A DNA stretch of 64,000 nucleotides from Peptococcaceae bacterium (GCA_018334055.1 JAGXSS010000040.1:13407-77406); one strand, 5' to 3'. Counted from the stretch's first letter, positions 4,118 through 49,110 are shown. Program-made: numbers and translations. The notes: a model not told the origin generated them from the sequence alone.

Positions 4118-4121
4118 GAGT

Positions 4122-15878: not shown

Positions 15879-15879
15879 A

Positions 15880-25460: not shown

Positions 25461-25874
25461 TTGAAGCGCTATTTAGCAATCCTATTGGTTGTGCTGGTCG
25501 GTGTCTCCGTATGGTTCTTAACTAGACCCACTGTGCCGGCGATTATCTCTGCCGAGCCGTACACAGAGTTTCACGCCGCTGTTGAGCGCGGGCGCCCCAT
25601 CTTCATCATGTTCACCAAGAAGGGTTGCCGGGCTTGTTTGGCGATGTATCCTCTGGTGGAAGAGCTCATCGCCCAATATCAGGACAGGGTGGCGATGATT
25701 GTCGCTGACCTAGCTGATGAGCAAACAATCGAGCTCGCTCGCAATTTTGAGTTTCGGGCGGTGCCGCATTTCATCATGATCGGCAGACAGGGTGAAACAA
25801 CAACACTGACTGGGCACGTAGCGAAGGAAGAGCTGCAATCCATGATTGAGGCAGGGCTAGTGTGGCAACCCTAG
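25461..25874 (+). CDS. Membrane-anchored thioredoxin-family protein
   Basis: N-terminal hydrophobic anchor, CRAC (CxxC), cis-Pro AVP. Confidence 0.82.
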   Translation: MKRYLAILLVVLVGVSVWFLTRPTVPAIISAEPYTEFHAAVERGRPIFIMFTKKGCRACLAMYPLVEELIAQYQDRVAMIVADLADEQTIELARNFEFRAVPHFIMIGRQGETTTLTGHVAKEELQSMIEAGLVWQP

Positions 25875-26539
25875 GTATTTTGCAAAATATGTTAATCGGC
25901 TCTTGGCCCCTGGCGGTGATAGCTTCTTTCGCCGCCGGTATCCTCACTAGTTTTTCCCCATGTGTCATGGCCATGACACCTTTAATGCTCGGCTATGTGG
26001 GTGCTTGGGGTGGGCATGACAAGTGGCGGAACCTTCTTCTCGTGTTATCCTTGGTCGCTGGCCTAGCGGGGGCATTTGCCATCTTAGGGCTAGTTGCGGC
26101 TTTTATTGGGGGGATATTTGGCCATTTCTCAACCACAGTCCCCTTGTTATTAGCAGCGGTATTGGTCGTCATGGGCCTAAGCCTCATGAAATTGGTGCAC
26201 TTACCGACCTGTGGCTTGAGCAAGTGGCCGCTTAAAATCGGCGGTAAGCGAGGGGCATTTTTGACTGGGCTCATGTTCGGTGTGGCGGCGTCGCCTTGCG
26301 CGACCGGATTTGTCGCCGTGATTATGAGCCTGGCCGCTGTTTCAGGGCAGCCCTTAGTGGGGGCCTCGTTGCTCTTCGCCTACGGGCTTGGTCACGGCGC
26401 ACCCTTGGTGGTGGTGGGCCTAGCGGCTGGGACCCTTAAGTCTTGGAGGCGTTTCAGCCAGTACTGGGATTACTTTTCCTTTGTTGCCGGCTTGCTTATA
26501 CTCGCCGTCGGTGTGTACCTCTTCGCCACCTGGCTTTAG
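25862..26539 (+). CDS. ccdA: CcdA/DsbD transmembrane thiol reductase
   Basis: FSPCV and ASPCA catalytic Cys motifs, six TMs. Confidence 0.88.
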   Translation: MATLGILQNMLIGSWPLAVIASFAAGILTSFSPCVMAMTPLMLGYVGAWGGHDKWRNLLLVLSLVAGLAGAFAILGLVAAFIGGIFGHFSTTVPLLLAAVLVVMGLSLMKLVHLPTCGLSKWPLKIGGKRGAFLTGLMFGVAASPCATGFVAVIMSLAAVSGQPLVGASLLFAYGLGHGAPLVVVGLAAGTLKSWRRFSQYWDYFSFVAGLLILAVGVYLFATWL

Positions 26540-26553
26540 AAACAAGCTTTTCT

Positions 26554-26580
26554 ACCTGTGAGTTTCTCACAGGTTTTTTT
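26554..26580 (+). terminator. Intrinsic terminator after ccdA
   Basis: ACCTGTGAG-TTT-CTCACAGGT + T run. Confidence 0.8.
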
Positions 26581-26620: not shown

Positions 26621-27733
26621 GTGCGGATATTGTTCGTTTTGCCCCCAACCTATAAAGGAACGGCGCTGTCCACAGTGGAGGCCTATGTGTATCGGCTAGC
26701 TGCGGCACTCGTTAAGCGGGGCATGAATATTTATGTGCTAGGGTCCCGCGATGTTGTGCCAAGAGAGGTACAGATGCAGGGTCTTTGCATTTTGCCCTGG
26801 CCTGCATGCGCAGAGCATGTCCTCCGGGGCATCATTAGGGACATCCGCCCTCATGTCGTCCAGGTTGAGAACCGCCCCGCCCTGATACGTGGCATTCGCC
26901 ACGTATTTAATGGGCAATTGGTGCTCAATTTGCACAACCTGACGCATCTCTCCGGCGACAGTATCTCCCGCAGCGAGTTGCGGGTAGCACTGTGCCTAGT
27001 GGACAATATCGTTTTGGGAAATTACTATCAAAAAAGCCTGTTTTTAGGTAGATTTTTTGGTTTGCGGGGGAGGGCCCATGTCATCTACCCCGGTGTCGAT
27101 AGAGAGGTTTTTCGCCCATACTATGGTGACCAAACTTTGGAGAGAACGCGTCATCAAAAGCGCCATGGCCTTGGTTTGACCGGTCGCGACTTCGTAATTT
27201 TAGTAGTGTCATCCATTGCGGGAGGTGATGGTATCGACACGCTAGAAAATGCGGTGAGTTTGGCAGCGGGGGCGCCAATGAAGATGGTGCTCGTCAGTAC
27301 GTATGAGGATGAATTTGCCTTCGGGGGAAGGCTCCTCGCTCAAGAGGGGCGGACAGACGGGATTAACGCAGAAGACTTGCCCGCATTGTATCGGGCGGCA
27401 GATGTCTGTGCCCTTCATGGCTGGGGGAGAGTATCCCAGGCCATGATAGGGTTAGAGGCGCAGGCCTCCGGACTCCCTGTAGTGACCAACCTGCGCGGCG
27501 GCATTGTGGAAACTGTCGACAAGGGGTCGGCCTTTTTATTGAGGAGTTATGACGAGGTAACTGCGTGGACTAGGTCCTTGGAAGTTTTGGCCAAGGATGA
27601 ACCCCTGCGGCGCAAAATGGGGCAAGTAGGAAGGGGGTTCACCGCACGGTTTAACTGGGAGCAGTGTGCAGTGCGTTTCCTGTCTGTTTACAGCGCTGTC
27701 TCGCCGCCGCGCGCCTTCGGCATCAGCTTGTAA
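26621..27733 (+). CDS. GT4 glycosyltransferase, CotSA-like spore coat protein
   Basis: QVENRP, LNLHN, VIYPGVD..F.P, LY.AADV, EAQASGLPVV...GGI.E. Confidence 0.8.
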   Translation: MRILFVLPPTYKGTALSTVEAYVYRLAAALVKRGMNIYVLGSRDVVPREVQMQGLCILPWPACAEHVLRGIIRDIRPHVVQVENRPALIRGIRHVFNGQLVLNLHNLTHLSGDSISRSELRVALCLVDNIVLGNYYQKSLFLGRFFGLRGRAHVIYPGVDREVFRPYYGDQTLERTRHQKRHGLGLTGRDFVILVVSSIAGGDGIDTLENAVSLAAGAPMKMVLVSTYEDEFAFGGRLLAQEGRTDGINAEDLPALYRAADVCALHGWGRVSQAMIGLEAQASGLPVVTNLRGGIVETVDKGSAFLLRSYDEVTAWTRSLEVLAKDEPLRRKMGQVGRGFTARFNWEQCAVRFLSVYSAVSPPRAFGISL

Positions 27734-27772
27734 ACAGCAAAAAATGCTGCGAATTGTGTCGAAAAGCAATGC

Positions 27773-27801
27773 TTGTATTCAATAGCATTTTTTACTATAA
27801 T
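27773..27801 (+). promoter_or_regulatory. SigA promoter for 89-aa ORF
   Basis: TTGTAT-N17-TATAAT. Confidence 0.65.
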
Positions 27802-27827
27802 TATAGCAAAAATAGGGAGGAGTTGTC

Positions 27828-28097
27828 GTGTTTGTCACTCTAATTCGCGAAGACAAGCAAGTCGCCGCTTTCGTCAGGCTGAGAGATGACAACACCGTAG
27901 AAATTAACGCCGCGCCAAGTAAACTCATGGGCCAGTTGCAGCAAATCTACCGCCCAATGATGACCCCGATAGAGTTTGCCCAAGCAAATTTTAACCTAAC
28001 CCGTTTACGTCGGCACGGGTTCACTTGGGAGCTCATGTTGATCAAGGATTATCTAGAGTTGTCGGCCATTGATCATCCCAGAGCAACCGACCTCTAA
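27828..28097 (+). CDS. Hypothetical protein (89 aa)
   Basis: RBS AGGGAGGAG, promoter upstream, hairpin downstream; no family recognised. Confidence 0.65.
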   Translation: MFVTLIREDKQVAAFVRLRDDNTVEINAAPSKLMGQLQQIYRPMMTPIEFAQANFNLTRLRRHGFTWELMLIKDYLELSAIDHPRATDL

Positions 28098-28102
28098 AAA
28101 CG

Positions 28103-28149
28103 ACCGTGCAGGGAGCCGAGGACGTATAGTCCGCGGCTCCCTGCACGGT
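28103..28149. repeat. Long GC-rich inverted repeat/hairpin
   Basis: ACCGTGCAGGGAGCCG...CGGCTCCCTGCACGGT perfect 16 bp plus inner GGAC/GTCC. Confidence 0.85.
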
Positions 28150-28234
28150 AACTGGGAGTTTAGCTATGAGTATGGTGAGAAGGCCTTAAGTGTGGTAGAA
28201 TGGGCAACGTAGAGTGTGACCATGGAGGGTGCAT

Positions 28235-29059
28235 ATGCGGGACATTTTGAAGCTTAGTCTTATCTTGGCGATTATCTGTGCGGTGGCTGGGGCTGCTCTA
28301 GCGGCCACATATTCGGTCACCAGTGAAGTGATTGTGGCGAGACAGAAAGCCGAGTTGGAGGCTCGCTTACAGGAACTACTGCCTATGGCTGACGCCTTTA
28401 CGGAGGTTGACGCCGATGGTGTTGTTCACTACCTTGCCAAGCGAGGCGGGCAGCTCGTTGGTGCCATTATGGTGGCCAGTGGACGGGGGCATGTGGGTCC
28501 CATCGAACTCCTAGTCTCTTTTGATGTGTCTGGGAAAGTTTTGGGCGTTAAAGTAACCGGTCATCGTGAAACGGCCGGCATTGGGCACAAGGTTGAAGAT
28601 CAAGGTTTCTTGCGTCAGTTTGTTGGCAAGGAGCAGGGTGATGCGGTTGCCATCGGGCAGGACATTGTCGCGGTGAGCGGTGCCACTACTTCCGCCCGCG
28701 GAGTTGCGGGGGGAGTGCGGCAGGCCATCGCTAATTTTAACGTTCATGTGATGCGCGCCCCGCCTGAGCCGGTTCTCGACATCAGCGCCGTGGCCGACGG
28801 TGAGTATGAGGGCGAAGGCGAGGGGCTGCTAGGTCCTATTAAAGTGCGGATGACTGTCAGAGGCGGTAAAATCGTCAACATCGCTGTCTTGTCACACAGC
28901 GAGACGCCAGATTACGCTGCCAGGGCTATTCCTGAAATCAGTCGGGCGGTTATCGAAAAGCAGACGGTGGATGTCGACGTCGTAAGCGGGGCTACAGGTG
29001 CCAGCGAAGGGCTGATTGCTGCTCTCAAGCAGGCTCTAAAGGAGGCACCGCTCAAGTAA
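28235..29059 (+). CDS. RnfG-like membrane-anchored protein with two FMN-binding domains
   Basis: RnfG-type N-terminus (LAIICAVAGAALA.TY.VT), H.ETAG.G, SGAT at 28676-28687 and second domain H.ETP.Y...DVVSGAT at 28985-28996. Confidence 0.88.
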   Translation: MRDILKLSLILAIICAVAGAALAATYSVTSEVIVARQKAELEARLQELLPMADAFTEVDADGVVHYLAKRGGQLVGAIMVASGRGHVGPIELLVSFDVSGKVLGVKVTGHRETAGIGHKVEDQGFLRQFVGKEQGDAVAIGQDIVAVSGATTSARGVAGGVRQAIANFNVHVMRAPPEPVLDISAVADGEYEGEGEGLLGPIKVRMTVRGGKIVNIAVLSHSETPDYAARAIPEISRAVIEKQTVDVDVVSGATGASEGLIAALKQALKEAPLK

Positions 29060-29075
29060 TTTGGAGGTGGCATTC

Positions 29076-29573
29076 GTGCCCAGTTGGAGTCGCAGAGTGG
29101 GTTGGACCTTGGTCCTTTTTATAGTATGGATTTTATTCGCTCAGAGTTTTCATTGGCAATCGCTCATCACCGGCATATTGGTAGCCTTTTTGGTAGCAAT
29201 GTTCAACGACGATTTGCTGCTAAGCCTAAGTAACGACCTGCACATCGATCGGCGGTCGTTATTTCCTTGGCTTGTGTTTTTTTACTGGCTGATAATTGAT
29301 ATCTGCAAGGCTGCCTGGGGGGTAGCTGTAGTGGCCTGCGCGTGGCGCATGGACCTAAAGCCTCAATTTGTAGTGCATCCCATTAAACTTGATGAAACAA
29401 CCATGCGGGTGGTCCTCGCCAATAGCATCACCCTCACCCCAGGCACACTGACGGTAGAAGCGCCGCAGTCTGGGGCCTTTGTGGTGCATGCCTTAAATGA
29501 CGCCGCCGCCGCAGGGCTCACCGACTGGCACATAGAAAATCGCTTGGTGGCCATCGAGAGGAGGTGCTGTTAA
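29076..29573 (+). CDS. mnhE: Na+/H+ antiporter subunit E
   Basis: LANSITLTPGTLTV motif. Confidence 0.9.
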   Translation: MPSWSRRVGWTLVLFIVWILFAQSFHWQSLITGILVAFLVAMFNDDLLLSLSNDLHIDRRSLFPWLVFFYWLIIDICKAAWGVAVVACAWRMDLKPQFVVHPIKLDETTMRVVLANSITLTPGTLTVEAPQSGAFVVHALNDAAAAGLTDWHIENRLVAIERRCC

Positions 29574-29842
29574 TGGTTTTAGCTGCACTGTTAGTTTCTT
29601 GTCTAGTCCTAGTCTTGCTCACTTTTGCGGCACTTTATCGGGCTATCGCCGGTCCGACTCCGGCTGATCGTGTTGTCGCCATCAATGTTATCGGTACCAA
29701 GACAATGGTCGTTCTCGTGCTCATCGGCTATATCTTCCACGAGGCGCCTTTCTACATCGACGTGGCCATGGTATATGCGCTCATTAGTTTCTTGTTGACC
29801 ATCGGTGTGGCACGTTACTTAGAGAGAGGAACCATCGTGTGA
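29573..29842 (+). CDS. mnhF: Na+/H+ antiporter subunit F
   Basis: GPT.ADRVVA.N, DVA.VYAL.SF. Confidence 0.9.
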   Translation: MVLAALLVSCLVLVLLTFAALYRAIAGPTPADRVVAINVIGTKTMVVLVLIGYIFHEAPFYIDVAMVYALISFLLTIGVARYLERGTIV

Positions 29843-29857
29843 AGGGGGCTGGAATGT

Positions 29858-30172
29858 ATGCTAGAAATAATCGTTCATGGTGTTGGTGTTGTCTTTATTC
29901 TGGCGGGGCTGTTCTTCTTTGCGGCTGGCACGCTCGGCCTTATACGCTTTCCTGATGTTTTGACCCGCATGCATGCCACGACTAAGTGCGACACCTTAGG
30001 TGCCGGTCTCATCCTCGTGGGGCTCATGTTTTTCCCAGGCACGGTTTATTTGCGATTGAAGCTAGCCGTTATTATAGTCTTTCTGTGGATTGCTAACCCC
30101 ACTGCCGCCCATTACATGGCGCGTGCCGTCTATCGCACCGAGAAGGGGGATGGCGATGCTACAGGCAGTTAA
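29858..30172 (+). CDS. mnhG: Na+/H+ antiporter subunit G
   Basis: GL.RFPD..TRMHA.TK.DTLG, NP.AAH..ARA. Confidence 0.92.
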   Translation: MLEIIVHGVGVVFILAGLFFFAAGTLGLIRFPDVLTRMHATTKCDTLGAGLILVGLMFFPGTVYLRLKLAVIIVFLWIANPTAAHYMARAVYRTEKGDGDATGS

Positions 30173-30398
30173 CATTTTGTTACTGGTGTTCTTGGTGGTT
30201 TGTGCCGTTGTCGTGGCGCGCACCAAGGACCTGCTCAGTGCGGTGATAATTTTTGGTGCTTACAGTATGGTTATGTCCATTATCTGGCAACAGCTACACT
30301 CGCCGGATATTGCTATAACGGAGGCAGCCATTGGCGCCGGCGCTACTTCGTTGCTATTTTTGGCAGCCATCAGTCGCACGAGGAGGCATGAAGAGTGA
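30156..30398 (+). CDS. DUF4040/MrpA C-terminal-like small membrane subunit
   Basis: DLLSAVI.F, PDIAITEAAIGAG. Confidence 0.85.
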   Translation: MLQAVNILLLVFLVVCAVVVARTKDLLSAVIIFGAYSMVMSIIWQQLHSPDIAITEAAIGAGATSLLFLAAISRTRRHEE

Positions 30399-30676
30399 AA
30401 AAAGTTCTTCCGGTGCTCGTTCTGGCGGCCATAGGGATGCTCTTGGTCTTGACAGTGGCGGAAATGCCAACTTTTGGTGACGGACAGGCCCCCGCCCATC
30501 GGGGCGTCATGGACAAATATCTTCGCGATAGCGCCCAAGATACGGGGGCTATTAATACCATCGCCGCCATCATTTTAGATTATCGAGCGTACGACACTTT
30601 AGGAGAGGCTACGGTGCTGTTTGTGGCTGTTTTGGCAGTTTCGGCGGCTCTGTACCAAGGTGAACACCATGCATGA
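30395..30676 (+). CDS. MbhE/MnhB N-terminal-like subunit
   Basis: N.IAAIILDYRAYDTLGE..VLF. Confidence 0.85.
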   Translation: MKKVLPVLVLAAIGMLLVLTVAEMPTFGDGQAPAHRGVMDKYLRDSAQDTGAINTIAAIILDYRAYDTLGEATVLFVAVLAVSAALYQGEHHA

Positions 30677-31109
30677 TATGGTTTTAGAGGTAGTAAACCG
30701 TTTGCTTCTGCCCTTTATCCAGCTTTTTGGCATGTACATTCTCTTTCATGGCCATCTCTCCCCTGGGGGCGGTTTTTCGGGGGGCGCGGTCATCGGGGCA
30801 AGTCTTATTCTCTATAGCCTGACCTTCCGCTTCGCTAGAGTAAAACATCGCCTGGATCATGATACATCGGTCTTCTTTGAAGCAGCCGGGGCCCTCATTT
30901 ACGTAGCCATTGGCTTTGTCGGGCTATTTTTTGGCTATAATTTTCTCACTAACAGGGGCGTGTTCCCACTCGGCGTGCCGGGACAATTGTGGAGTAGCGG
31001 CATGATTCTCATCATTACGCTCGCGCTCGGGGCAAAGGTCAGTGGGACTATTTTGTCTTTGTTCCAAGAACTCTTGGAAGGGGGGAGTGATGAGCATGGA
31101 AATCCTTGA
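30669..31109 (+). CDS. mnhB: Na+/H+ antiporter subunit B
   Basis: GHLSPGGGFSGG motif. Confidence 0.88.
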   Translation: MHDMVLEVVNRLLLPFIQLFGMYILFHGHLSPGGGFSGGAVIGASLILYSLTFRFARVKHRLDHDTSVFFEAAGALIYVAIGFVGLFFGYNFLTNRGVFPLGVPGQLWSSGMILIITLALGAKVSGTILSLFQELLEGGSDEHGNP

Positions 31110-31467
31110 GCGACTTTACGGGAACATCTATTATCTGACATCGGTTATCCTCTTTGTCATTGGATTTCATACGATGCTCACCCATCGCAACCTCATCAAA
31201 AAACTGATGGCTCTCAACATCATGGATACCGCCATTTTTCTTTTTTTTGTCGCCATTGGTTACCGGCAGGGTGGACAAGCGCCGATACTGCTTCCCGGAG
31301 TCACAAGCTTTGTCAATCCTGTGCCCTCGGCCCTCATCCTTACCGGCATTGTCATCTCAGTGAGTTTTACCGCCTTCGCCCTGGCCTTGGTGGTCCTACT
31401 ATACAAGCATTACGGCACCCTCGATTCTGATGAAATCATTGCGATTAGAGGCAAGAAACATGTTTAG
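31096..31467 (+). CDS. mnhC: Na+/H+ antiporter subunit C
   Basis: NL.KK..AL.I, NP.P.AL.LTGIVI. Confidence 0.9.
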   Translation: MEILERLYGNIYYLTSVILFVIGFHTMLTHRNLIKKLMALNIMDTAIFLFFVAIGYRQGGQAPILLPGVTSFVNPVPSALILTGIVISVSFTAFALALVVLLYKHYGTLDSDEIIAIRGKKHV

Positions 31468-32926
31468 TCTAACTCATGCCCCAATTCTCATGGTGGTTAT
31501 CTTGCTCACCGCAGCCTTCATCGTGCCCCTGCTGCGCAAACATCTGCTAGTGGCCAAAGCGCTCTTTCTTGGTGCCGGCCTGTTGGTGACTATACTGTCT
31601 TTCTTAGTCGCCTGGAATGTCCTCGAAAACGGTACCATGGTCTATAATGTTGGGGGATGGGCCGCTCCGCATGGTATCGCCTTAGTGGTAGATGCCTTTG
31701 CAGCCTATGTGTCCTTGGTAATATCAGTAATCTCGTTGGTCATCTTCTGGTTTGCCGTTTTTGCGCCGCGGGAAGTTAAGCATGAGGTTGGCTACTATGC
31801 CCTCATACTCCTGTTAACTGCTGCCATGCACGGCATCGTCATGGCGGGAGATATCTTCAACCTATTTGTATTCGTGGAAATCAGTTCGTTAGCGGCGGTG
31901 GCCATTATTGCCGTTAAGGGTACAAAGGAGAGCATTGAGGCCAGCTTTCGATACCTAATCTTAAGTGCTCTCGGCTCGGGGGGGCTGCTCTTTAGCATCG
32001 CCCTCCTCTTTATGGTTACCGGACACTTGAACATGGACCTTATGAGGCAGACCCTAGAGGTAACGGCGGGGCAATACCCCTTGAATGTGCTGACCGCACT
32101 CGCTTTTATGGTCGTAGGGCTAGGGGTCAAGTCGGCACTCTTCCCCTTGCATATTTGGTTGCCCGATGCCCATGCGAACGCTCCCACCGCTTCTAGTGCC
32201 TTGCTCAGCGGCCTCGTGGTCAAGGTTTACATCGTGGCCCTCATGCGCATAGCCTATATGACTTTGGGCATGGAACTGTTTTACCTCCTGCCAATACGCC
32301 AAATTTTGCTTGTCATGGCTTCCTTGGCGATTGTGGCCGGGTCAGTCTTTGCCATAGTTCAAGATAACATTAAGCGCCTCCTGGCCTTTTCCACAGTCGC
32401 GCAAGTAGGATATATCTTCCTCGGCTTTTCCTTGTTGAGCGCGAGGGCAGTGGAGGGCGCGGTATGGCATATTCTCATTCATGCTATCATGAAGACCTTG
32501 CTGTTTTTGGCGGTGGGCGTAGTAATACACCAAAGCGGCTATAAGAAGATCTCGCAACTGCATGGTCTGGGCAGGCGGATGCCCTTGACTTTTGCCTGCA
32601 TCACCTTGGGGGCACTGTCTATGGTAGGCATTCCCGGCACAGCGGGGTTCATTTCCAAGCTCTACCTTGCACTTGGTGCACTTGATGCGGGTCAGGCCAT
32701 CTTTGCTGTGCTCATATTATTAAGCAGCCTGCTCTCTGCGGTCTACTACTTTCCGCTAATCATTACCGCTTACTTTGGGCACGATGCTTCGCCTACGGTG
32801 GTCGAGCCCTCACTCGCCGTGCAACTGCCCCTTGTGGTGTTAGCAATTGCAGTGTTGTTCTATGGGCTCATGCCCTCAATACTCCTGCCGTTAGTGCGTC
32901 AAACCGCCTTGTTGATAACGCGTTAA
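31460..32926 (+). CDS. mnhD: MrpD/NuoM-like proton-conducting subunit 1
   Basis: DIFNLFVF.EI, K.ALFPLH.WLP.AH, IKRLLA.ST..Q.GY, H...K..LF. Confidence 0.9.
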   Translation: MFSLTHAPILMVVILLTAAFIVPLLRKHLLVAKALFLGAGLLVTILSFLVAWNVLENGTMVYNVGGWAAPHGIALVVDAFAAYVSLVISVISLVIFWFAVFAPREVKHEVGYYALILLLTAAMHGIVMAGDIFNLFVFVEISSLAAVAIIAVKGTKESIEASFRYLILSALGSGGLLFSIALLFMVTGHLNMDLMRQTLEVTAGQYPLNVLTALAFMVVGLGVKSALFPLHIWLPDAHANAPTASSALLSGLVVKVYIVALMRIAYMTLGMELFYLLPIRQILLVMASLAIVAGSVFAIVQDNIKRLLAFSTVAQVGYIFLGFSLLSARAVEGAVWHILIHAIMKTLLFLAVGVVIHQSGYKKISQLHGLGRRMPLTFACITLGALSMVGIPGTAGFISKLYLALGALDAGQAIFAVLILLSSLLSAVYYFPLIITAYFGHDASPTVVEPSLAVQLPLVVLAIAVLFYGLMPSILLPLVRQTALLITR

Positions 32927-32942
32927 ATTTGGAGGGTTTGTC

Positions 32943-34424
32943 ATGTTTATGTTTCTTCAAACGCCAGTCTTGGCAGTTATCATCCCCATGGTGTTGTTTG
33001 CCGTCATCTACCTCGTTGAGCGGCGTTCCTGGCGGTTGCGCAATGCGCTTGCTGTCCTGGCCCCACTGATTTCGTTCTTGCTGCTACTCGGCAGTTATCC
33101 CCAAGTAATTGCCGGGGAAAGAGTATTTATTGAATTTCCTGCCATTTTGCCGCCGCTCGGGATGTCTTTTAGTATTGACTATTTGTCCCTCCTCGTGGGG
33201 CTAGTGGTTTCTTTCGTGTGGTTACTGGTTACCATCTACGCCACGGAATACATGGTCAAAGAACATGCCAAGAATCGCTACTATCCTTTTTCAACGTTAA
33301 CTCTGGCGGGTACTATGGGGGTCATATTGAGTGGTGACCTCTTTACCTTTTTTCTGTTCTTTGAGCTGATGTCACTTTCCGCATATGTTCTGATTGTGCA
33401 TGAGGAAACGCCCGAGGCCATGCGGGCCGGTTACAAGTACTTGGTCCTTACCATTGCAGGTGGTTTGGCTCTGTTCTTCGCGACAATTGCAGTTTTCGAG
33501 ATTGCCGGTACGGTTTCATTTGCTCCGGGCGGTTTTATCGCCGAAGTGAGCGGGTTGGCCATAATGGCTTTCTATGCGTTCTTAATCGGCTTCGGTATCA
33601 AGGCGGGCATTGTTCCACTTCATGTCTGGTTACCTGAGGCTCATCCGGTTGCGCCGAGCCCAGCCAGCGCCCTGCTCTCGGGCGTAATGTTGAAGACTGG
33701 TGCTTACGGCATGATACGCGTGGTATTCAACGTCTTCGGATACGAAGGTATCCGCGGGGCTGGTCTCGACAATTCCATGCTGGTTCTTGCGGCCATCACG
33801 ATATTCCTCGGCTCTGCCGTCGCTATTTCGCAAGAAGATATTAAGCGGCGCCTTGCCTATTCGAGCGTCGGGCAGATGGGGTACATTTTGCTTGGCATTG
33901 GACTGCTCCAAGAGCGCGCCCTAATTGGTGCTATTTTCCATATTTTTGCTCACGCGGTCATGAAGTCCAGTCTCTTCTTGGCAGCTGGCGCGGTCATTCA
34001 CAAGACGGGAAAGAGACGCATCTCCGAATGGAATGGCCTTGGCCAAGAAATGACGGTTACCATGCTGGTGTTTACCGTCGCAGCCCTGTCCATGGTCGGC
34101 ATTCCGCCCTTGGTGGGCTTCGTGTCTAAGTGGGAATTAGCGTTGGGTTCACTCGATGCGGGAAACTGGGGTTTTGTCCTACTGCTGCTCCTTAGTTCCA
34201 TGATGAACTTTATTTACTACTTCCCTCTTATTCAAAATACCCTCTTCGGCAAGCAGCAGGCCGCCGAGGGTCAGGCGTCTAATTCTCCTGAGTTGCCATG
34301 GAAGATGCTCGCGCCGATGGTTGTGCTGGCGTTAATTATTGTTTTGATTGATCTCTTCCCCCAAAACCCCGCTTTAGATCTTGCTAAAAGGGCGGCCGGG
34401 GCATTATTCCTGGGCGTTCATTAA
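32943..34424 (+). CDS. MrpD/NuoM-like proton-conducting subunit 2
   Basis: DLFTFFLFFELM, K.G.VPLH.WLP.AHP.AP, K.RLAYSS..Q.GY, GIPP..GF.SK. Confidence 0.9.
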   Translation: MFMFLQTPVLAVIIPMVLFAVIYLVERRSWRLRNALAVLAPLISFLLLLGSYPQVIAGERVFIEFPAILPPLGMSFSIDYLSLLVGLVVSFVWLLVTIYATEYMVKEHAKNRYYPFSTLTLAGTMGVILSGDLFTFFLFFELMSLSAYVLIVHEETPEAMRAGYKYLVLTIAGGLALFFATIAVFEIAGTVSFAPGGFIAEVSGLAIMAFYAFLIGFGIKAGIVPLHVWLPEAHPVAPSPASALLSGVMLKTGAYGMIRVVFNVFGYEGIRGAGLDNSMLVLAAITIFLGSAVAISQEDIKRRLAYSSVGQMGYILLGIGLLQERALIGAIFHIFAHAVMKSSLFLAAGAVIHKTGKRRISEWNGLGQEMTVTMLVFTVAALSMVGIPPLVGFVSKWELALGSLDAGNWGFVLLLLLSSMMNFIYYFPLIQNTLFGKQQAAEGQASNSPELPWKMLAPMVVLALIIVLIDLFPQNPALDLAKRAAGALFLGVH

Positions 34425-34435
34425 GGGGTGAGTTG

Positions 34436-36610
34436 ATGTTTACTCGCGATATACTCCTCCTACTGCCTATTTTAGCGCCCATACTGGGTGCGCTCCTCCT
34501 TCTGCTTAATCCAGCGCGCTCCTGGTTATGGCCGCGTGTCGTAGCTGTACTTGCGGCCTTCTTCTCCTTGGTCGCCTTGGTGGTGGTGTTTAATTTGCGT
34601 CAGGCTGGAACTATACTGCAGCTTAATCTTCTCCATGTTGTTGATTACGGCCTGAGCTTTCGACCATCATTTCTTGGCGTGACGCTTGCGGTGGCTGTCG
34701 CTGCATTATGGTTTTTAGCCAGCATCTTTGCCGTATCATTCCTGAAAAGCACTCATTCTCCGCGCAGGTTTTTTGCTTCTTTCCTTTTAAGTATGGGTGG
34801 GTGTGTGGGTGTCTTCTTGGCCAACGACTACTTCACTTTTTTTGTTTTTTTTGAATTGATGACCTTTGCGGCTTACCCACTTGTCGTTCATGCCGAGAGT
34901 GATCATGCTCGCCGGGCTGGGGATATCTACCTCTATATGAGTGTCGCGGGGGGGCTGGTACTGCTCTTTGGCATATTGCTCTTGGTTTGGGCCACCGGCA
35001 CCGCGGAAATCGCCCCCAAGCTCCATGTTCTTCTGGAGAGGGGGGTCAACCCATATATCCTCGCCTTTATGTTTCTAGTCGGCTTCGGCCTAAAAATGGG
35101 TTTAGTGCCCCTCCACATCTGGCTGCCTTATACCTATGTTTCTGCCCCAGCGCCAGCTACAGCCATGCTTTCGGGGGCCATGAACAAGACCGGCGTGTAT
35201 GGACTGGTTGTTTTCCTGACCGTTACATTAGCTAACAAGAGTGAGACACTTGCTCCAGCGGCTACTTTGGTGCAAGAAAATATCGGTCTAATATTACTGG
35301 GGCTGGGCTTGGTGACCATGCTGATGGGTGGTTTTCTCGCGCTTATGCAGAGCAACATTAAGCGATTACTGGCATATTCGAGTATAAGCCAGATGGGATA
35401 TATTGTACTTGCGCTGGCATCGGCCATGTACCTCACCAAGGAAGGGGGGCTGGCCCATACTGCGGCAATATTTCATGCGTTTAATCACGCTTTGTTTAGC
35501 ACAACCCTGTTCCTCTTAGGAGGGGTGATTTACATGTATGCTGGGAGCTTACTCTTTGATCGCTTGGGTGGGTTGGCGCGTTTTCTGCCCTTTACGGCGA
35601 TTGCCGCCCTCATCGCCTCATTATCGGTCTTGGGCTTGCCTGGTTTCGCTGGTTTTGGCAGTAAAACCTTGATTCATAAGGCCTTAGTTGCCGTAGCGGA
35701 GCATGGTGACAGTTGGTGGTTACTGATGACCGAAAAACTGTTTGTCCTTGGCAGTGCCATAACCGCGGCCTACTTTATTAAATTGTATCTAGGCATATTT
35801 TTCGGCAAGTTTAAGGGTGCTGAATTGCGCTATCGGCAAGAAGGCTGGCTGATGAGGACAGTCCTTGGCGTTTTGTGTTGCGGAATGCTACTCGTTGGCA
35901 TGTTCCCTGGGTTAGCCATGCGCTTTTTCAGTTTGGCGGCGGAGGGTACTTTCGTGAATATAACCTACCTAGTTAAAAAACTAGCCACGGTAGATTTTTG
36001 GACGGCCTATGCCTATGGCGGCGTGTTTTGGCCCTTTGCCTTGGGCATTATTGTGTTTGTCATCGCCAAGTACTGCCGGTTTTTCGCATGGAAATACCCG
36101 AAATGGCTATCCGTTGAGGCGCTTGTCTTTCGCCCAGCCTATAACTTCTTTCTGATGCTGTGCTGCTTGTATGCGACCAAGGCTGATGGCGGCATCTGTG
36201 ATGTCTATGACCGCGGCGGCACCATTTCTGGGCGTCTTTTGCGGCAGGTCAAGCGCTTTGATGACCTCATTGACGAGGGCTACGAGGCAGTCGGACATGG
36301 GACATCACAAATTGTTGAGCAGGCGAGACAGTTAGACCAAGGTGTGAATAAAGCGTATCAGGATGTTGGCGGGCATGCACACTCTGTGGCGCACGGCATG
36401 AGCATGGTTGATACGGCTGCAGATGAAGCTTACGCGCTAGTAGGGAAGGCGGCTACCCGAGTTCCGGAGGGCCTGAACAAGTTGGAGGGGATAGGAAGCA
36501 CGGCGAGCACTTTCAGCCTGCAGAATGTTACCATTGGTTCGCTCATCGTGGCGGTTATACTGCTGATGATACTAACAATCATGTACATTTATGGTGGACA
36601 AGTGCTATAA
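34436..36610 (+). CDS. MrpD/MrpA(NuoL)-like subunit 3 with long C-terminal helical extension
   Basis: FFVFFELM, K.G.VPLH.WLP, IKRLLAYSS.SQ.GY; soluble repeat region then final TM. Confidence 0.88.
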   Translation: MFTRDILLLLPILAPILGALLLLLNPARSWLWPRVVAVLAAFFSLVALVVVFNLRQAGTILQLNLLHVVDYGLSFRPSFLGVTLAVAVAALWFLASIFAVSFLKSTHSPRRFFASFLLSMGGCVGVFLANDYFTFFVFFELMTFAAYPLVVHAESDHARRAGDIYLYMSVAGGLVLLFGILLLVWATGTAEIAPKLHVLLERGVNPYILAFMFLVGFGLKMGLVPLHIWLPYTYVSAPAPATAMLSGAMNKTGVYGLVVFLTVTLANKSETLAPAATLVQENIGLILLGLGLVTMLMGGFLALMQSNIKRLLAYSSISQMGYIVLALASAMYLTKEGGLAHTAAIFHAFNHALFSTTLFLLGGVIYMYAGSLLFDRLGGLARFLPFTAIAALIASLSVLGLPGFAGFGSKTLIHKALVAVAEHGDSWWLLMTEKLFVLGSAITAAYFIKLYLGIFFGKFKGAELRYRQEGWLMRTVLGVLCCGMLLVGMFPGLAMRFFSLAAEGTFVNITYLVKKLATVDFWTAYAYGGVFWPFALGIIVFVIAKYCRFFAWKYPKWLSVEALVFRPAYNFFLMLCCLYATKADGGICDVYDRGGTISGRLLRQVKRFDDLIDEGYEAVGHGTSQIVEQARQLDQGVNKAYQDVGGHAHSVAHGMSMVDTAADEAYALVGKAATRVPEGLNKLEGIGSTASTFSLQNVTIGSLIVAVILLMILTIMYIYGGQVL
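36182..36481 (+). repeat. Four tandem 25-aa amphipathic helix repeats
   Basis: ADGGICDVYDRGG.. / FDDLIDEGYEAVG.. / LDQGVNKAYQDVG.. / VDTAADEAYALVG..; D at position 2, Y at 9, G at 13 in all four. Confidence 0.75.
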
Positions 36611-36626
36611 GGGGGGCGATGCTACT

Positions 36627-36983
36627 GTGACCTCGATGGACAAAAAAATAGCAGTAATTGTACTGCTACTGGCGGTGCTGATGGGGGTCGGGGTTCTTTA
36701 TTGGCGCTACGTCACGCCCTCCGGGCAGCAGGCTACCATTTTGGTGGACAACAGGCCGGTCGAGACCGTGGTCCTCGACCCTGCATTGGGGATGAGGCAG
36801 GTCGTGGTGCAAGGCGTACGCGGGGAGACCGTCATAGAAATCGATGGTCCTTCGATACGTATCATAGCCTCAGACTGTCCGGACAAACTATGCATTAAGA
36901 TGGGTCGTAAGAGTAGACCGGGCGAGGTCATAGTCTGCCTGCCCAATCGAGTTGTAATTAGAATTGATGGCAACGAGCAATAG
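36627..36983 (+). CDS. NusG domain II-containing membrane protein
   Basis: N-terminal TM; I..SDCPDKLC.K.G...PGE.IVCLPNRVVI. Confidence 0.9.
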   Translation: MTSMDKKIAVIVLLLAVLMGVGVLYWRYVTPSGQQATILVDNRPVETVVLDPALGMRQVVVQGVRGETVIEIDGPSIRIIASDCPDKLCIKMGRKSRPGEVIVCLPNRVVIRIDGNEQ

Positions 36984-38262: not shown

Positions 38263-39036
38263 ATGCGTTCTCTAGTACAAGGCTTTATTCTTGGGTTAGT
38301 CGTTATTTTGCCCGGCATGAGCGGCGGAACAGTGTTTCTCATCATGGGTTTGTATGAAAAGATGATTGCCGACTTGGTGCGTCTGAACTTAAAGCCCTAC
38401 GTACCCATCTTTGGCGGCATGGTCGTAGGGATTTTCCTTGGGGGCACAGTTTTTGCCCTCATTTTTGAACGCTTTCGCGACATCACGGTGGCTTTTCTTC
38501 TGGGTAGTTTAGTCGCCTCGGTACGCTCGGTGCTAAGCGATGGACCAAGGCCAAATATGGCGAGGGTACTATGCCTAGGCATTGGCCTGACCCTTGGCGT
38601 ACTCTTTGGAGCTGAGCCACTCGTTATTGAGCCTGGTTCCGCTCCGGTAGGTGCAGTAGCGCTGCTCATCGGTGGAGCACTGAGTACAGCCGCCATGGTC
38701 TTGCCGGGAGTGCCGGGGAGTTCGGTGCTCATTATTATGGGTATATACGACACGATGCTCTACTATATCAAGGAAATGGCAGTCGGGCAGCTCTTGATCT
38801 TCGCCTTGGGCAGCGTGGCTGGTTTGTTCTTGCTCGCCTATGTGCTCGATAAGCTCTATGCCCGCTATCGGGACCTCTTATCGTACTTCTTCGCCGGCCT
38901 CATCCTAGGCTCCACCCGAGCTCTCGTGCCCACCGAGTTCAGTGGGTTTATTTTGTTAAGCATGGTCGTGGGATTTATAACTGTATGGTATTTCAGTGGT
39001 CGGCGCGGCAGAGTAGCAGATGGAGCGGTTTCCTAG
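38263..39036 (+). CDS. DUF368 membrane protein (undecaprenyl-phosphate translocase family)
   Basis: Duplicated LPG.SG motif (ILPGMSGGT; VLPGVPGSS), G.Y...I. Confidence 0.85.
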   Translation: MRSLVQGFILGLVVILPGMSGGTVFLIMGLYEKMIADLVRLNLKPYVPIFGGMVVGIFLGGTVFALIFERFRDITVAFLLGSLVASVRSVLSDGPRPNMARVLCLGIGLTLGVLFGAEPLVIEPGSAPVGAVALLIGGALSTAAMVLPGVPGSSVLIIMGIYDTMLYYIKEMAVGQLLIFALGSVAGLFLLAYVLDKLYARYRDLLSYFFAGLILGSTRALVPTEFSGFILLSMVVGFITVWYFSGRRGRVADGAVS

Positions 39037-39812
39037 ATTGGTATTAACGAAATCTGCGGGATACCCGCACTCGGGTGCATGAATACGCTAACTTGACAGC
39101 CGTAGACGGCTTCGATCAGTCTTGGTTGCAGCACCTCAGCTGGTGTTCCGGAGGCATATAGTTCACCTGCCGCCATGACCAAGAGTCTTTGGCAGTATAA
39201 CGCGGCTAAGTTTATGTCATGAAGAACGGCAATGATGGTCATACCTCCCTGGGCCAGTGAACGTAGGAGGGTGAGTAATTCCATCTGATGCCTGATATCA
39301 AGATGAGTGGTCGGTTCATCTAGAATTAGGACCGGACAATTCTGGGCCAAGGCGGTGGCAATGCGCGCCCTTTGCTTCTCACCGCCGCTCAGCTTGCTGA
39401 GGAGGCGGTCTTGTAGGTCAGAGAGGCCCGCTTTGCTTAAGGCCTGCTCGATACTGGCCTTGTCTTCGGCGTTCTCATGCTGCAAGAGGGACTGATGGGG
39501 CAGACGCCCGAGGCTCACTAACTCTCGCACCGTTAGGTCAATACCATGAATACTTTCCTGTTCAACCACTGCCAGGGCACGGGCCATTTGTTGGTGCGAT
39601 AGCTGTGCAGTGGTTTTGCCATTAAGCCATACTTGACCTCTCTCGGGTGTTAACCAGCGGGCGATCACTTTCACCAAGGTTGACTTCCCTGAGCCATTCG
39701 GACCTATTATGCCGGTAAAGCTACCCTGGGGAAAATGAGCGGTGATATTCTTTAAGATCGGTCGCTCGGCATAGCTAAAACAAAGTCCAACAATGTCTAG
39801 TGGATGCATCAT
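39033..39812 (-). CDS. btuD: Cobalamin/iron-chelate ABC ATPase
   Basis: GPNGSGKS, LSGGE.QR, LDEPT.HLD. Confidence 0.85.
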   Translation of the reverse strand: MMHPLDIVGLCFSYAERPILKNITAHFPQGSFTGIIGPNGSGKSTLVKVIARWLTPERGQVWLNGKTTAQLSHQQMARALAVVEQESIHGIDLTVRELVSLGRLPHQSLLQHENAEDKASIEQALSKAGLSDLQDRLLSKLSGGEKQRARIATALAQNCPVLILDEPTTHLDIRHQMELLTLLRSLAQGGMTIIAVLHDINLAALYCQRLLVMAAGELYASGTPAEVLQPRLIEAVYGCQVSVFMHPSAGIPQISLIPI

Positions 39813-40849
39813 ATCATCGCCTTTCGGCTTCTGGCAAGCAAGTAAAGGAAGAAAGGCCCTCCTGCCAGCGCAGTGATTATGCCCACCGGAAGTTCAGTAG
39901 GTCGCAGCATCACCCGAGCTAGAATGTCAGCCAAGGTCAGAAATATTGCTCCTAGTAGTGCTGAATAGGGCAGCAGACGACGGTAGTTTTCTCCTCCAAG
40001 TAGACGCGCCACATGAGGGGTCATCAGTCCGACAAAGCCTATGACACCGCTAACCGCCACGCAGGCGGCAGTGAGCAAGGCGGTGGAACATAGCAAAACG
40101 AGACGGATCTTCTCGACGTTCACCCCAAGATGGTGAGCGGTCATGTCGCCAAGGCTGATGGCCGTAAGGTAGCGGTGATAGAAAAAAGCCAGAGCATAAC
40201 CGGCAAGTAGGTAGGGGCTGGCCAGCGCAACATGTTGCCAGCCACGCCCGGCAAAGCTGCCCATCAGCCAGAAGAGTAAGGGTTGAATGCGGTTGCCACT
40301 AAAATATACTAAGAGGGAAACCAAAGCAGAGAGAAAACTGCTCATGGCAATGCCGGCGAGCAACAACCCTAAAGTGGAGCTACCGGCTACACGGCGAGCG
40401 ATGATAATGACTACAACCAAGGTCGCTACCGCTCCGAGGAAGGCCATGGGAGTAATAGCGCCAAGACCAAAAAAAGTGAAACGCAAACCCAAAAGCATAG
40501 CTACAGCGGCTCCAAGGCTGGCACCGGAAGAAACTCCTAGGATGTGCGCATCGGCCAAGCCGTTGTGCAAAAGACCCTGTAAAATAGCGCCCGCAGTGGC
40601 TAACCCCGCACCCACCATCGCCGCGAGGATAACCCGGGGGAGTCGCAAACGGAACAAAACAATGGTTTCATAATCCCATTCGGCAAGCGGAACAGTGAAG
40701 AGTTGGCCTAGCGAGTGGCCGAGACGGGTGGGGGAGATGTCCACTGCCCCAACCGCCAGTCCCAGAAGCAATGCCACCGCCAAGGCCAAGGAGAGGGTGA
40801 CTGTCAGTCTCCCTCTCCTTACGCTCGTCAAAACCTTGACTAACGCCAT
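39809..40849 (-). CDS. btuC: FecCD-family cobalamin ABC permease
   Basis: RLPRV, N.LA...LGVSSGA, G.IGFVGL..PH, ELPVG..TA..G.PFF. Confidence 0.87.
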   Translation of the reverse strand: MALVKVLTSVRRGRLTVTLSLALAVALLLGLAVGAVDISPTRLGHSLGQLFTVPLAEWDYETIVLFRLRLPRVILAAMVGAGLATAGAILQGLLHNGLADAHILGVSSGASLGAAVAMLLGLRFTFFGLGAITPMAFLGAVATLVVVIIIARRVAGSSTLGLLLAGIAMSSFLSALVSLLVYFSGNRIQPLLFWLMGSFAGRGWQHVALASPYLLAGYALAFFYHRYLTAISLGDMTAHHLGVNVEKIRLVLLCSTALLTAACVAVSGVIGFVGLMTPHVARLLGGENYRRLLPYSALLGAIFLTLADILARVMLRPTELPVGIITALAGGPFFLYLLARSRKAMI

Positions 40850-41742
40850 AGTCCTGGGTGCAGACGCTGAGCAATGTCGAGCAGGCCAAGAACAATGCGC
40901 GGACCGGGGCGCAGCACCAGGTCCTCATTGACCAAGTAGACTCTGTTGTTAGCGATGGCGGGGATAGTTCCCCAATCAGTGCGGGCGCTAATTTCCTCGA
41001 CCGTCAGTGTACCATGACCGCGGAACATGACCGCTGGTCTTTGGGCGAGGATGTCCTCTAGGGACAGATTAGGCCAGTCTGTGGCGGCCCCGGCAGCGAG
41101 GTTTTTGCCACCACCCCTAGTAATGAGTTCGTGGATAAACGTGTTAGGTCCGGCACTCATTATGGGGTCATGCCAAATCTCAAAATAGACGAGTGGTTTG
41201 GCGATCTCGGCCAAAGCCTTGGTTTTTTCCTCCACTTGCCGTAGCGTAGCATTCATCTCTTTTACTAAGCTCTCCGCCTGCCTGGTCGCGCCGGTTGCCC
41301 GGCCGAGTAAAATGGCATTGTCCATTATCTGCCGGATGTTTCTTGGGTTCAGTGCGATTACTGGGATGTTAAGCTGGGCCAGCTGCTCGAGTACGCTTTG
41401 GTGCAAGCTGGCGGCGACTACGAGGTCGGGTTTGACGCTGACGATTTTTTCAACTGAAGGTGCGCCAAACCCGCCCACCTTGTCCTTCGCTTGCGCCTCG
41501 GCAGGGTAGTTGCAAAATTCGGTCACACCAACGACCTTGTCACCTAAGCCGAGAGCGAATAGCATTTCCGTGTTGCTGGGCACGAGGGAGACAATGCGCA
41601 CCGCAGGTTTTGGCAGGGTTACTTCCCGACCGTAATCATCGGTAAGGACTATGTTGCGTTGTAAAAGTGCCGTGATGGGGGCACAGCCGGTGGCGATTAG
41701 AGATACTAGGACCACCAAAGTCAGGATGAACAATTTTTTCAT
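40840..41742 (-). CDS. btuF: Cobalamin-binding lipoprotein
   Basis: Lipobox IATGC, RIVSL.PS.TE..FALG, RPGPR; downstream of B12 riboswitch. Confidence 0.88.
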   Translation of the reverse strand: MKKLFILTLVVLVSLIATGCAPITALLQRNIVLTDDYGREVTLPKPAVRIVSLVPSNTEMLFALGLGDKVVGVTEFCNYPAEAQAKDKVGGFGAPSVEKIVSVKPDLVVAASLHQSVLEQLAQLNIPVIALNPRNIRQIMDNAILLGRATGATRQAESLVKEMNATLRQVEEKTKALAEIAKPLVYFEIWHDPIMSAGPNTFIHELITRGGGKNLAAGAATDWPNLSLEDILAQRPAVMFRGHGTLTVEEISARTDWGTIPAIANNRVYLVNEDLVLRPGPRIVLGLLDIAQRLHPGLWR

Positions 41743-41856: not shown

Positions 41857-41924
41857 TCGGTAGAGCAAAAGGGCACCCCAATGGCTCTGACCTTGTCCCC
41901 TCGACCGAAGGACATGTCTTCATT

Positions 41925-42092
41925 GTGGGGCAGGTTTCCTGACTTCGGGATTGGCGCGTCCGGCTCCTTCCCATCTGCCAACGCAGACAGTGGCTTATGC
42001 CGGTTGCTACCCGATACAGTGGCGGGACCGTTCAGGCTTGTAACCTGATTCCCTTTTAATCCCCAGTTTGGGGAACCCTCACAAAGGCTATT
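41925..42092 (-). ncRNA. Cobalamin riboswitch (btuFCD)
   Basis: AAAAGGGAAUCAGGU...CGGUCCCGCCACUGU...GCCACUG...GGGAAG...GUCAGGAAACCUGCC. Confidence 0.95.
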
Positions 42093-42169
42093 TAGTTACA
42101 GGAACAGTATAGCACGGGGAACCTAAAATATAAAGGGCACATGAAGAACGTCAACGTCAGCTAGGCTTG

Positions 42170-47524: not shown

Positions 47525-47620
47525 TATTTGGACCTCCTTAAACAACTAGCGCCTTCAAACAGAGCAATCTGAGGAACTTGGTACACAGGGTGCGACTTGC
47601 ATCCATCTTGCAACTCCAAT

Positions 47621-48880: not shown

Positions 48881-48946
48881 AGGACAAAGCTAGGTAACCC
48901 AAAGCTTTGACCCAGTCCCCTCGACCGCAGGACGGCGTCGTATACG

Positions 48947-49110
48947 GCATGGCAGGTCTCCTGGCTTAGGGATAAACGCGCCTAGCACCTTCCCATTTGC
49001 GCGAGCAAACAGTGGTTGTTGCTAAGTACTACCCTATACAGTGGCGGGACCGCTCAGGATTTTAACCTGATTCCCTTTTAACCCTTGTTACCCAAGGGCA
49101 CCATGCAGTT
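48947..49110 (-). ncRNA. Cobalamin riboswitch (cblTS-cob operon)
   Basis: AAAAGGGAAUCAGGU...CGGUCCCGCCACUGU...CCACUG...GGGAAG...GCCAGGAGACCUGCC. Confidence 0.95.

Follow-up and report, generated by a model that had tools for sequence, protein, structure and literature searches.

What does an Mrp-type antiporter cassette do when it is placed between a gene for an RnfG-like flavoprotein with two flavin mononucleotide (FMN)-binding domains and a gene for a NusG_II protein? Such an arrangement is found at positions 28235-36983 of the stretch of DNA considered here (64,000 nucleotides (nt) from Peptococcaceae bacterium, GCA_018334055.1 JAGXSS010000040.1:13407-77406; hereafter, the window). The original prediction, made from the sequence alone, offered two explanations, namely a new membrane complex in which a flavinylated subunit couples or gates a Na+/H+ pump, and an mrp operon that had replaced the core of an rnf locus. 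The source organism is a relative of Dethiobacter, namely a spore-forming Firmicute of the alkaliphile type that is uncultured. The reading that we favour, with somewhat better than even confidence, is that a conventional antiporter is accompanied by an rnf-derived flavoprotein and the maturation accessory EetA, both serving an Rnf/flavinylation system; the sequences of both flanking genes point to their descent from an rnf locus.

Gene content of the operon and its antiporter cassette

Open reading frame (ORF) calls and Pfam searches gave 12 genes on the plus strand, in the order RnfG-like-E-F-G-MbhD-MbhE-B-C-D-D-D-NusG_II (Table 1), which agrees with the tightly packed same-strand run described originally. 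The intergenic spacing ranges from a 17-nt overlap to a 16-nt gap, with start codons chosen by homologue lengths and by gene calls on identical contigs. The earlier remark that no terminator was noticed in the run also stands, the terminator-like matches inside it being weak, intragenic and present only at background frequency (21 versus 15.8 ± 4.1 in shuffled sequence). The transcription unit most likely starts at the flavoprotein gene, since upstream hairpins or terminators are followed by a -10-like element and a ribosome-binding site; the GTGTGGTAGAATGGGCAA block around the -10-like element is also found upstream of the orthologous flavoprotein gene in a related locus (L001; loci are designated by L and a number). 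The best reading of this layout is one compact operon comprising two modules that would have different jobs.

The cassette encodes all of the canonical Mrp functions A-G, each Pfam match being above the gathering cut-off. MrpA is split over three genes (MbhD, MbhE and a 724-amino-acid (aa) N-terminal part in the last position), and one MrpD-like subunit is present beyond the canonical set, giving three antiporter-like subunits and not two. In subunits 1 and 2 the FxE, GxK, K-T/V and SK motifs are legible (Glu of transmembrane (TM) helix 5; Lys of TM7, TM8 and TM12). Subunit 3 has a 225-residue C-terminal extension; AlphaFold 2 (AF2) modelling with 40 homologues predicted a core of 14-15 helices with a predicted local distance difference test (pLDDT) score >90 and, with low confidence, a tail in which helices 561-631 and 641-684 precede a TM helix (701-724). 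A Foldseek search placed the MrpA chains 7qru_A and 6z16_A at the top, followed by NuoL/NdhF, with >600 aligned columns; the closest sequence matches include the Mbs and Mbh chains 6u8y_X and 6cfw_H, and the channel residues E141, K221, K252, H348 and K411 are invariant in the 40 homologues. According to the model, subunit 3 is the equivalent of MrpA-N/NuoL, with a lateral helix and a terminal TM anchor. Judging by its gene content, the Mrp cassette is complete by itself, and, in the manner of other Mrp systems, it would use the membrane potential to exchange Na+ (or K+) for H+, with no redox input.

A metagenome scan with the MnhE profile gave a background set of 80 loci, all of them distant relatives (≤41% identity), with no members of the window's clade; wherever contigs reach far enough, these loci have the E-F-G ... 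B-C-D-D(-D) layout. An FMN_bind gene was found upstream of mrpE in 0/58 of the loci having at least 1 kb of upstream DNA and rnf genes in 1/58, so this E-F-G-first type of cassette normally stands alone.

These counts bear on the suggestion that the flavoprotein and EetA belong, as genuine subunits, to a redox-linked Mrp complex, where the flavin redox state drives or gates the exchange or, more widely, where an extended RnfG bridges an Rnf-Mrp supercomplex. Reuse of Mrp modules in combination with redox modules is established for Mbh, Mbs and complex I, and in the window a 16-nt gap flanks the mrp cassette on either side (29059/29076 and 36610/36627). However, 60-100 nt separate the flavoprotein gene from mrpE in other members of the clade, none of the 58 cassettes of the same type has an upstream flavoprotein gene, and the window contains neither a coupling subunit (NuoH/MbhM-like or NuoB/NuoD-like) nor an electron donor or acceptor module. 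We consider such a complex improbable; with the cassette complete alone and an anchor helix that is still RnfG-like (see below), the analysis produced no positive evidence for a redox-coupled or redox-gated pump forming a new membrane complex. It is also quite improbable that the flavoprotein, possibly together with EetA, is an accessory subunit of Mrp that gates or drives Na+/H+ exchange, or, in a broader form, that an Rnf-Mrp supercomplex existed and the window's clade was stripped of its Rnf core.

Table 1. Coordinates of the operon genes and of features upstream of them, as positions in the window
Feature	Position	Strand	Evidence or remark
Membrane-anchored thioredoxin (CxxC) and DsbD_TM/CcdA-type protein	25461-26574		Strong terminator 26554-26574
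Small ORF, 89 aa	27828-28097		Directly upstream of flavoprotein gene; preceded by TTGTAT-17-TATAAT promoter
Extended -10-like element TGgTAGAAT, promoter-like	28193..28201	+	Sequence reading; putative function
Ribosome-binding site GGAGGG	28224-29	+	Sequence reading
Double-FMN flavoprotein, 274 aa	28235..29059	+	Pfam FMN_bind 2e-30, two stretches
MrpE (MnhE)	29076..29573	+	Pfam MNHE 6.6e-28; start per gene calls of identical contigs
MrpF	29573..29842	+	Pfam MrpF_PhaF 6.7e-18
MrpG (MnhG)	29858..30172	+	Pfam PhaG_MnhG_YufB 6.1e-29
MbhD-type (former DUF4040), first piece of MrpA C-terminal domain	30156..30398	+	Pfam MbhD 1e-20; homologues 79-80 aa
MbhE-type, second piece of MrpA C-terminal domain	30395..30676	+	Pfam MbhE 3.5e-9
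MrpB (MnhB)	30669..31109	+	Pfam MnhB 7e-29; homologues 146 aa
MrpC (NuoK-like)	31096..31467	+	Pfam Oxidored_q2 3.8e-25; homologues 123 aa
Antiporter-like subunit 1, MrpD/NuoN-like, 488 aa	31460..32926	+	Pfam Proton_antipo_M 2.2e-65
Antiporter-like subunit 2, MrpD-like, 493 aa	32943..34424	+	Pfam Proton_antipo_M 1.5e-68, Proton_antipo_N 6e-9
Antiporter-like subunit 3, predicted MrpA-N/NuoL equivalent, 724 aa	34436..36610	+	Pfam Proton_antipo_M 7.9e-51
EetA-type, N-terminal TM helix and NusG_II	36627..36983	+	Pfam NusG_II 2.6e-25

The flavoprotein and the NusG_II protein

The two SGAT sites read originally in the RnfG-like protein are present as the predicted flavinylation sites T151 (AVSGAT) and T254 (VVSGAT), numbered from the ATG at 28235. 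PDB searches matched residues 7-171 to the RnfG of the Clostridium tetanomorphum Rnf complex (7zc6_G, 1.3e-20) and residues 193-273 to a domain of 8p2b, a multi-flavin protein that has been characterised (1.1e-13); the AF2 model (pLDDT 87) comprises a helix (residues 3-50), an RnfG domain (56-173), a short linker and a second FMN domain (191-272). The protein is predicted to be membrane-anchored and extracytoplasmic, and each of its two FMN domains would be flavinylated by ApbE on the threonine. Homologues of the flavoprotein (25 found) all belong to Dethiobacter or uncultured Firmicutes. The SGAT threonines are invariant across 14 homologues, and the motif variants found are SEAT instead of SGAT at the last site of P0012 and TNAT at the first site of P0016; orthologues of about 366 aa (P0002, P0008, P0012, P0014 and P0020) contain a third FMN_bind domain, located between the two domains or C-terminally.

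The N-terminal helix and the SGAT motif lie within the variation of operon-encoded RnfGs. With 68-88% identity inside the clade, the helix is the best conserved segment of the protein; it still has the general RnfG signature and is 65% identical to that of Dethiobacter alkaliphilus RnfG, versus 27-29% for the remainder of domain 1. Drift would be expected of a plain anchor, and divergence from RnfG of one refitted to a different partner, so the membrane partner is probably still of the RnfD/RnfE type; the lack of adaptation to a new partner also counts against a redox-linked Mrp complex. In the reading favoured here, the flavoprotein may dock via this helix into RnfD/RnfE of an Rnf encoded elsewhere in the genome, as the sole or an alternative RnfG, and the second flavin would serve electrons outside the membrane as a side port, a role proposed for multi-flavinylated RnfGs (PMC8238504).

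The nature of the additional domains can be read differently. The second domain, and the third where there is one, belongs to the free-standing type of FMN_bind known from multi-flavin proteins (8p2b), some lineages have three FMN domains, and no rnf core gene is present in the window or in the loci of the clade; all this would suit an Rnf-independent extracytoplasmic electron carrier, PplA-like and EetA-aided, that is merely co-transcribed with the antiporter and for which CcdA/DsbD with thioredoxin is a candidate donor. The thioredoxin (CxxC) and DsbD_TM pair is indeed conserved upstream in the clade loci extending far enough, from L001 to L009, it directly adjoins the flavoprotein gene in L008, L009 and L012, and DsbD-linked flavinylation systems have been proposed (PMC8238504). 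However, the described DsbD systems use DUF3570 and not FMN_bind (PMC8238504), in the window a strong terminator (26554-26574) and two other genes separate DsbD from the operon, and the adjacency is of little weight, as the neighbouring housekeeping genes are equally syntenic; the RnfG-like and most conserved N-terminal helix indicates an RnfD/E-type partner. The pair could be a source of extracytoplasmic reductant or merely reflect conserved gene order, and we hold an Rnf-independent carrier to be a possible but rather doubtful explanation.

The flavoprotein is 37-42% identical to the RnfGs of the sister clade, and between the same clades the identity is 37-42% for MnhE and 34-36% for MrpD3 (subunit 3); both the flavoprotein and EetA diverge at roughly the pace of MnhE and MrpD3. 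The invariant threonines, the MnhE/MrpD3-like rate and the gain of a third domain in some lineages indicate, at the level of sequence comparison, that the flavoprotein gene is under selection. They also make it very unlikely that the flanking genes are decaying, non-functional leftovers of a degraded rnf locus. The local lack of rnf core genes would fit such decay, as would the flavoprotein gene of L007 (draft GCA_018725535.1), split into ORFs of 182 aa and 77 aa (10001-10845). Against it, the ORFs are full-length, with invariant threonines and EetA cysteines down to ~50% identity, and the second MrpD-like gene of L007 is also split into two ORFs (14781-15353), so the splits in this draft genome are probably frameshifts or assembly errors and not decay.

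A neighbour-joining (NJ) tree of the RnfG domain, from which the outlier P0020 was left out and to which L174 was added, recovered the orphan clade in 286/300 bootstraps and the grouping of the orphan and Dethiobacteria RnfGs in 193/300. In an earlier NJ tree that included P0020, the mrp-linked group was recovered in 28/100 and the orphan clade in 0/100.

At the other end of the operon, the product of the last gene matches Pfam NusG_II (PF07009) with 89 bits versus a cut-off of 29.6, behind a single N-terminal TM helix. It also matches Lin0431 (PDB 3ld7, 2.4e-10) and has the conserved CPDxxC...C motif, with C96, C101 and C116 invariant among homologues. PF07009 carries the label EetA in Data Set S1 of PMC9973259. 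The same study (Rivera-Lugo et al. 2023) identified PF07456 as EetB, which binds the substrate in an energy-coupling factor (ECF)-type FAD exporter feeding ApbE, and counted 3,328 genomes where eetB and eetA colocalise and 572 Clostridia genomes where eetB is found together with Rnf genes. A genome scan with the NusG_II profile gave 80 loci, including 76 outside the window's clade. In these unrelated loci, PF07456/EetB is located immediately downstream of NusG_II in 67/76 cases (median gap 2 nt), rnf membrane genes lie within 10 kb in 33/76, mostly as rnfCDGEAB directly upstream, apbE is found in 25/76 and mrp in 0/76. The background statements of the original prediction are borne out, including the one that NusG-II genes keep company with apbE, rnf or extracellular electron transfer (EET) loci. 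In the window no eetB follows the NusG_II gene; a convergent gene for an HI0933-like flavoprotein is found there instead and overlaps the NusG_II gene end. A place for EetA as a subunit of a redox-linked Mrp complex is disfavoured by its documented association with EetB/ApbE and by the deletion of eetA in Listeria, which had no electron-transfer phenotype (PMC9973259). Taken at the level of sequence, then, the operon has a flavinylation substrate at one end and an accessory of flavinylation trafficking at the other.

As a separate observation, eetA and eetB are split by clade: L089, L090, L091 and L174 have apbE-eetB without eetA, and the window's clade has eetA without a nearby eetB.

Relatives and history of the locus

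The original prediction left it to a synteny search to establish whether the arrangement is peculiar to this genome. It is not: the FMN-mrp-NusG_II order was found in at least seven distinct loci (L001/L002, L004/L005, L006, L007, L008=L012, L009 and L010) of related uncultured Dethiobacteria-type Firmicutes, where the flavoprotein is 51-64% identical to that of the window; one more locus, L011, is cut at mrpE. Assemblies with this order include GCA_018333655.1, GCA_002292025.1 (UBA994), GCA_018725535.1, QLUB01 (isolate GPS119) and CAYGHR01. A sister arrangement, rnfCDGEAB-(moaC)-mrp, where the mrp cassette is orthologous to that of the window, is present in L003 (D. alkaliphilus), L089, L090 and L091, with moaC missing in L091. 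In L089, L090 and L091 mrp is followed by apbE-eetB-maf-radC; L003 ends within the third MrpD-like gene, the region beyond being outside the locus. The RnfGs of L003, L089 and L091 have 268-283 aa and two flavinylation sites, and that of L090 is single-domain. In L092, rnfA-rnfB are located directly upstream of MnhE. The maintenance of the arrangement in at least seven loci down to ~50% protein identity, and the location of mrp beside rnf/flavinylation genes in two deeply diverged clades (MrpD3 34-36%), are comparative observations that would suit a redox-linked Mrp complex. Against that complex, L174 (Dethiobacteria, 8648-16353) retains the rnf locus without mrp, in the order rnfCDG(271 aa, two FMN domains)EAB-moaC-apbE-eetB-radC-mreBCD; it looks like an "empty site" of the D. 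alkaliphilus rnf locus, and the mrp cassette appears to behave as an insertable or deletable block.

The upstream neighbourhood in the window's clade is different and includes genes for an HD hydrolase, thioredoxin, DsbD and a glycosyltransferase. Perhaps the simplest history suggested by these layouts is that a double-FMN RnfG arose inside an rnf locus, that an mrp cassette then became linked to this locus and that a derivative keeping rnfG, mrp and eetA settled in another chromosomal neighbourhood, giving rise to the window's clade. The earlier proposal that mrp replaced the rnf core is thus half right: mrp is tied to a former rnf locus, as L003, L089, L090, L091 and L174 indicate, but no replacement took place, and the two genes flanking mrp in the window, both of them rnf-locus genes, stayed or moved with it. 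In the favoured reading, co-transcription with mrp would co-regulate a Na+-pumping redox enzyme and a Na+/H+ exchanger of an alkaliphile ion cycle; in Methanosarcina acetivorans, rnf and mrp co-occur and are co-induced (PMC2838876).

Several observations weigh against the reading of a conventional antiporter combined with Rnf-serving proteins. Docking into RnfD/RnfE requires an Rnf encoded elsewhere in the genome, and this part of the reading fails if rnf genes are absent. Searches with phmmer and the D. alkaliphilus Rnf proteins found no rnfC/D/E/A in the 64-kb window, and the related FMN-mrp-NusG_II loci contain no rnf core genes, apbE or eetB within +/-10 kb. The NCBIfam rnfG model TIGR01947 gives the flavoprotein 97.7 bits, just below the cut-off of 102. 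Drift alone does not account for the retention of exactly the two extracytoplasmic rnf-locus genes, packed tightly around mrp. Housekeeping genes around the operon are equally conserved in order in most relatives, so the conservation of the arrangement within the clade is weak evidence for or against a functional link. In D. alkaliphilus L003, the region from rnfB to moaC contains a strong, GC-rich 12-bp hairpin (12829-12855) as well as a TTGACA-17-TACACT site; with a hairpin and a promoter-like site there, adjacency need not mean one transcript, and rnf and mrp may not be transcribed together in this species.

The only match of an Rnf query in the window was a weak one to RnfB (6e-12) in an unannotated minus-strand frame at the left edge. 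Neither apbE and eetB nor hydrogenase or Nuo B/C/D/H/I genes were detected in the 64-kb window (phmmer; Pfam of all large ORFs), and the absence of rnfC/D/E/A, hydrogenase and NuoB/C/D/H/I genes originally noticed for the run accordingly extends to the whole window.

Two candidates were set aside in the course of these comparisons. MBS4022963, the only candidate among the "Dethiobacter sp." matches of D. alkaliphilus RnfD, was considered as part of the clade's own rnf, but it lies ~30,000 accessions from MBS4053750, MBS3889034 and MBS3873344, which are entries for the clade's flavoprotein, and so belongs to another genome. NPL-UPA2 "Unc8" (PMC6305446) was considered on account of the label NPL-UPA2 carried by L009 and not used, its mrp being preceded by fhs and not by a flavoprotein gene; Unc8 has rnfCDGEA and apbE elsewhere than mrp.

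In D. alkaliphilus, moaC overlaps mrpE by 14 nt (L003:12822-13962), an odd coupling, at the level of translation, between a molybdenum-cofactor gene and an antiporter operon.

Surroundings, significance and comparison with known systems

The small ORF upstream of the flavoprotein gene has no Pfam or NCBIfam match; L001, L004, L006 and L007 have it too, with 76-82 aa. A perfect 16-bp hairpin (28103-28149, folding z-score -6.4) without a T-run comes after it in the window; in L001, L004 and L006 a hairpin and T-run terminator is located between the small ORF and the flavoprotein gene. A search for a riboswitch or leader upstream of the operon gave no significant Rfam match in 27700-28300.

Other parts of the window contain features of their own. 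A germination operon composed of GerA, GerB (spore permease) and GerC, together with a Germane-domain protein, is located at 1462-5909, and these spore-germination genes are the basis for regarding the organism as a spore-forming Firmicute. Of two cobalamin riboswitches on the minus strand (41912-42096 and 48934-49120; 121 and 102 bits), one precedes the genes of a BtuFCD-like ABC importer (39033-41742) and the other those of an ECF-S component and cobU, cobQ, cobD and cobS (42170-48830). Seven tRNA genes are clustered on the plus strand (57125-57873), and positions 58058-60817 encode a 919-aa protein with weak matches to UvrD/superfamily-1 helicases and ankyrin repeats, unusual for a Firmicute.

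Every part of the operon belongs to a known family, and multi-flavinylated RnfG, the colocalisation of EetA/EetB with Rnf and Mrp clusters with the Mbh order are already described. In the literature searched, no description was found of mrp embedded in the Dethiobacteria rnf-apbE-eetB locus or of its reduced version, where an orphan rnfG is kept together with eetA; in the genome papers on D. alkaliphilus, mrp appears only as an antiporter, and the parts of the supplementary tables of PMC8238504 and PMC9973259 covered here contain no Dethiobacter, UBA994 or Mrp-family entries. If the ordinary reading, i.e., an antiporter accompanied by Rnf-serving proteins, is true, the value of the locus lies mainly in annotation and evolution: an "RnfG" beside mrp in these genomes would be evidence neither for a complete Rnf nor for a new pump, and EetA would be the proper name for the NusG_II gene. 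The repeated occurrence of mrp in or beside the rnf/apbE/eetB locus fits a co-managed Na+ cycle at very high pH, where Rnf pumps Na+ and Mrp trades Na+ for H+. Should Rnf be missing entirely from these genomes, the protein would represent the first demonstrated recruitment of an RnfG-type flavoprotein for a different role.

Compared with RnfG, the flavoprotein of the window has an N-terminal anchor helix bearing the RnfG signature, followed by an FMN domain of the RnfG type that contains the SGAT threonine, and the RnfG of D. alkaliphilus, encoded inside rnfCDGEAB, shares with it the extra FMN_bind domain; the differences are that rnfC/D/E/A/B do not adjoin the gene in the window, that the TIGR01947 score is slightly under the cut-off and that some orthologues have three FMN domains. 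Multi-flavinylated RnfGs within RNF clusters have already been described, and the ApbE-flavinylated multi-FMN proteins of the same study are similar in having more than one FMN_bind domain, each with the motif, and in being predicted to be extracytoplasmic, whereas the cluster in the window has no apbE (Meheust et al. 2021, PMC8238504).

The cassette resembles the Mrp antiporters of the CPA3 family (6Z16 of Anoxybacillus flavithermus and 7QRU of Bacillus pseudofirmus) in the A-G functions, the Glu/Lys/His residues and the MrpA-type lateral helix, but its order, with E-F-G first, is that of archaeal Mbh/Mrp clusters. The common Mrp-type membrane module also relates it to Mbh, Mbs/Mbx, formate hydrogenlyase and complex I; unlike these, the window has no NuoH/MbhM-type subunit, no NuoB/NuoD/NiFe-type module and no iron-sulfur protein, and they in turn have no counterpart of the outward-facing single-helix flavoprotein.

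The EET carrier PplA of Listeria resembles the flavoprotein, as predicted here, in having two ApbE-type FMN_bind domains and in being extracytoplasmic and membrane-tethered. The protein of the window differs from PplA-type carriers in its RnfG-like first domain and anchor and in having no lipobox, and no ndh2 or dmk genes are located near its gene. With the EetA/EetB pair of Firmicutes, the last gene product shares PF07009, the N-terminal TM helix and the cysteine motif of the family; the difference is that no eetB (PF07456) adjoins the eetA of the window. Another parallel is M. acetivorans, where a Na+-pumping Rnf occurs together with an Mrp antiporter, which fits a shared ion cycle; there, rnf and mrp form separate clusters, whereas in Dethiobacteria they lie side by side, with rnfG as the sole gene of the Rnf complex left beside mrp in the clade of the window.

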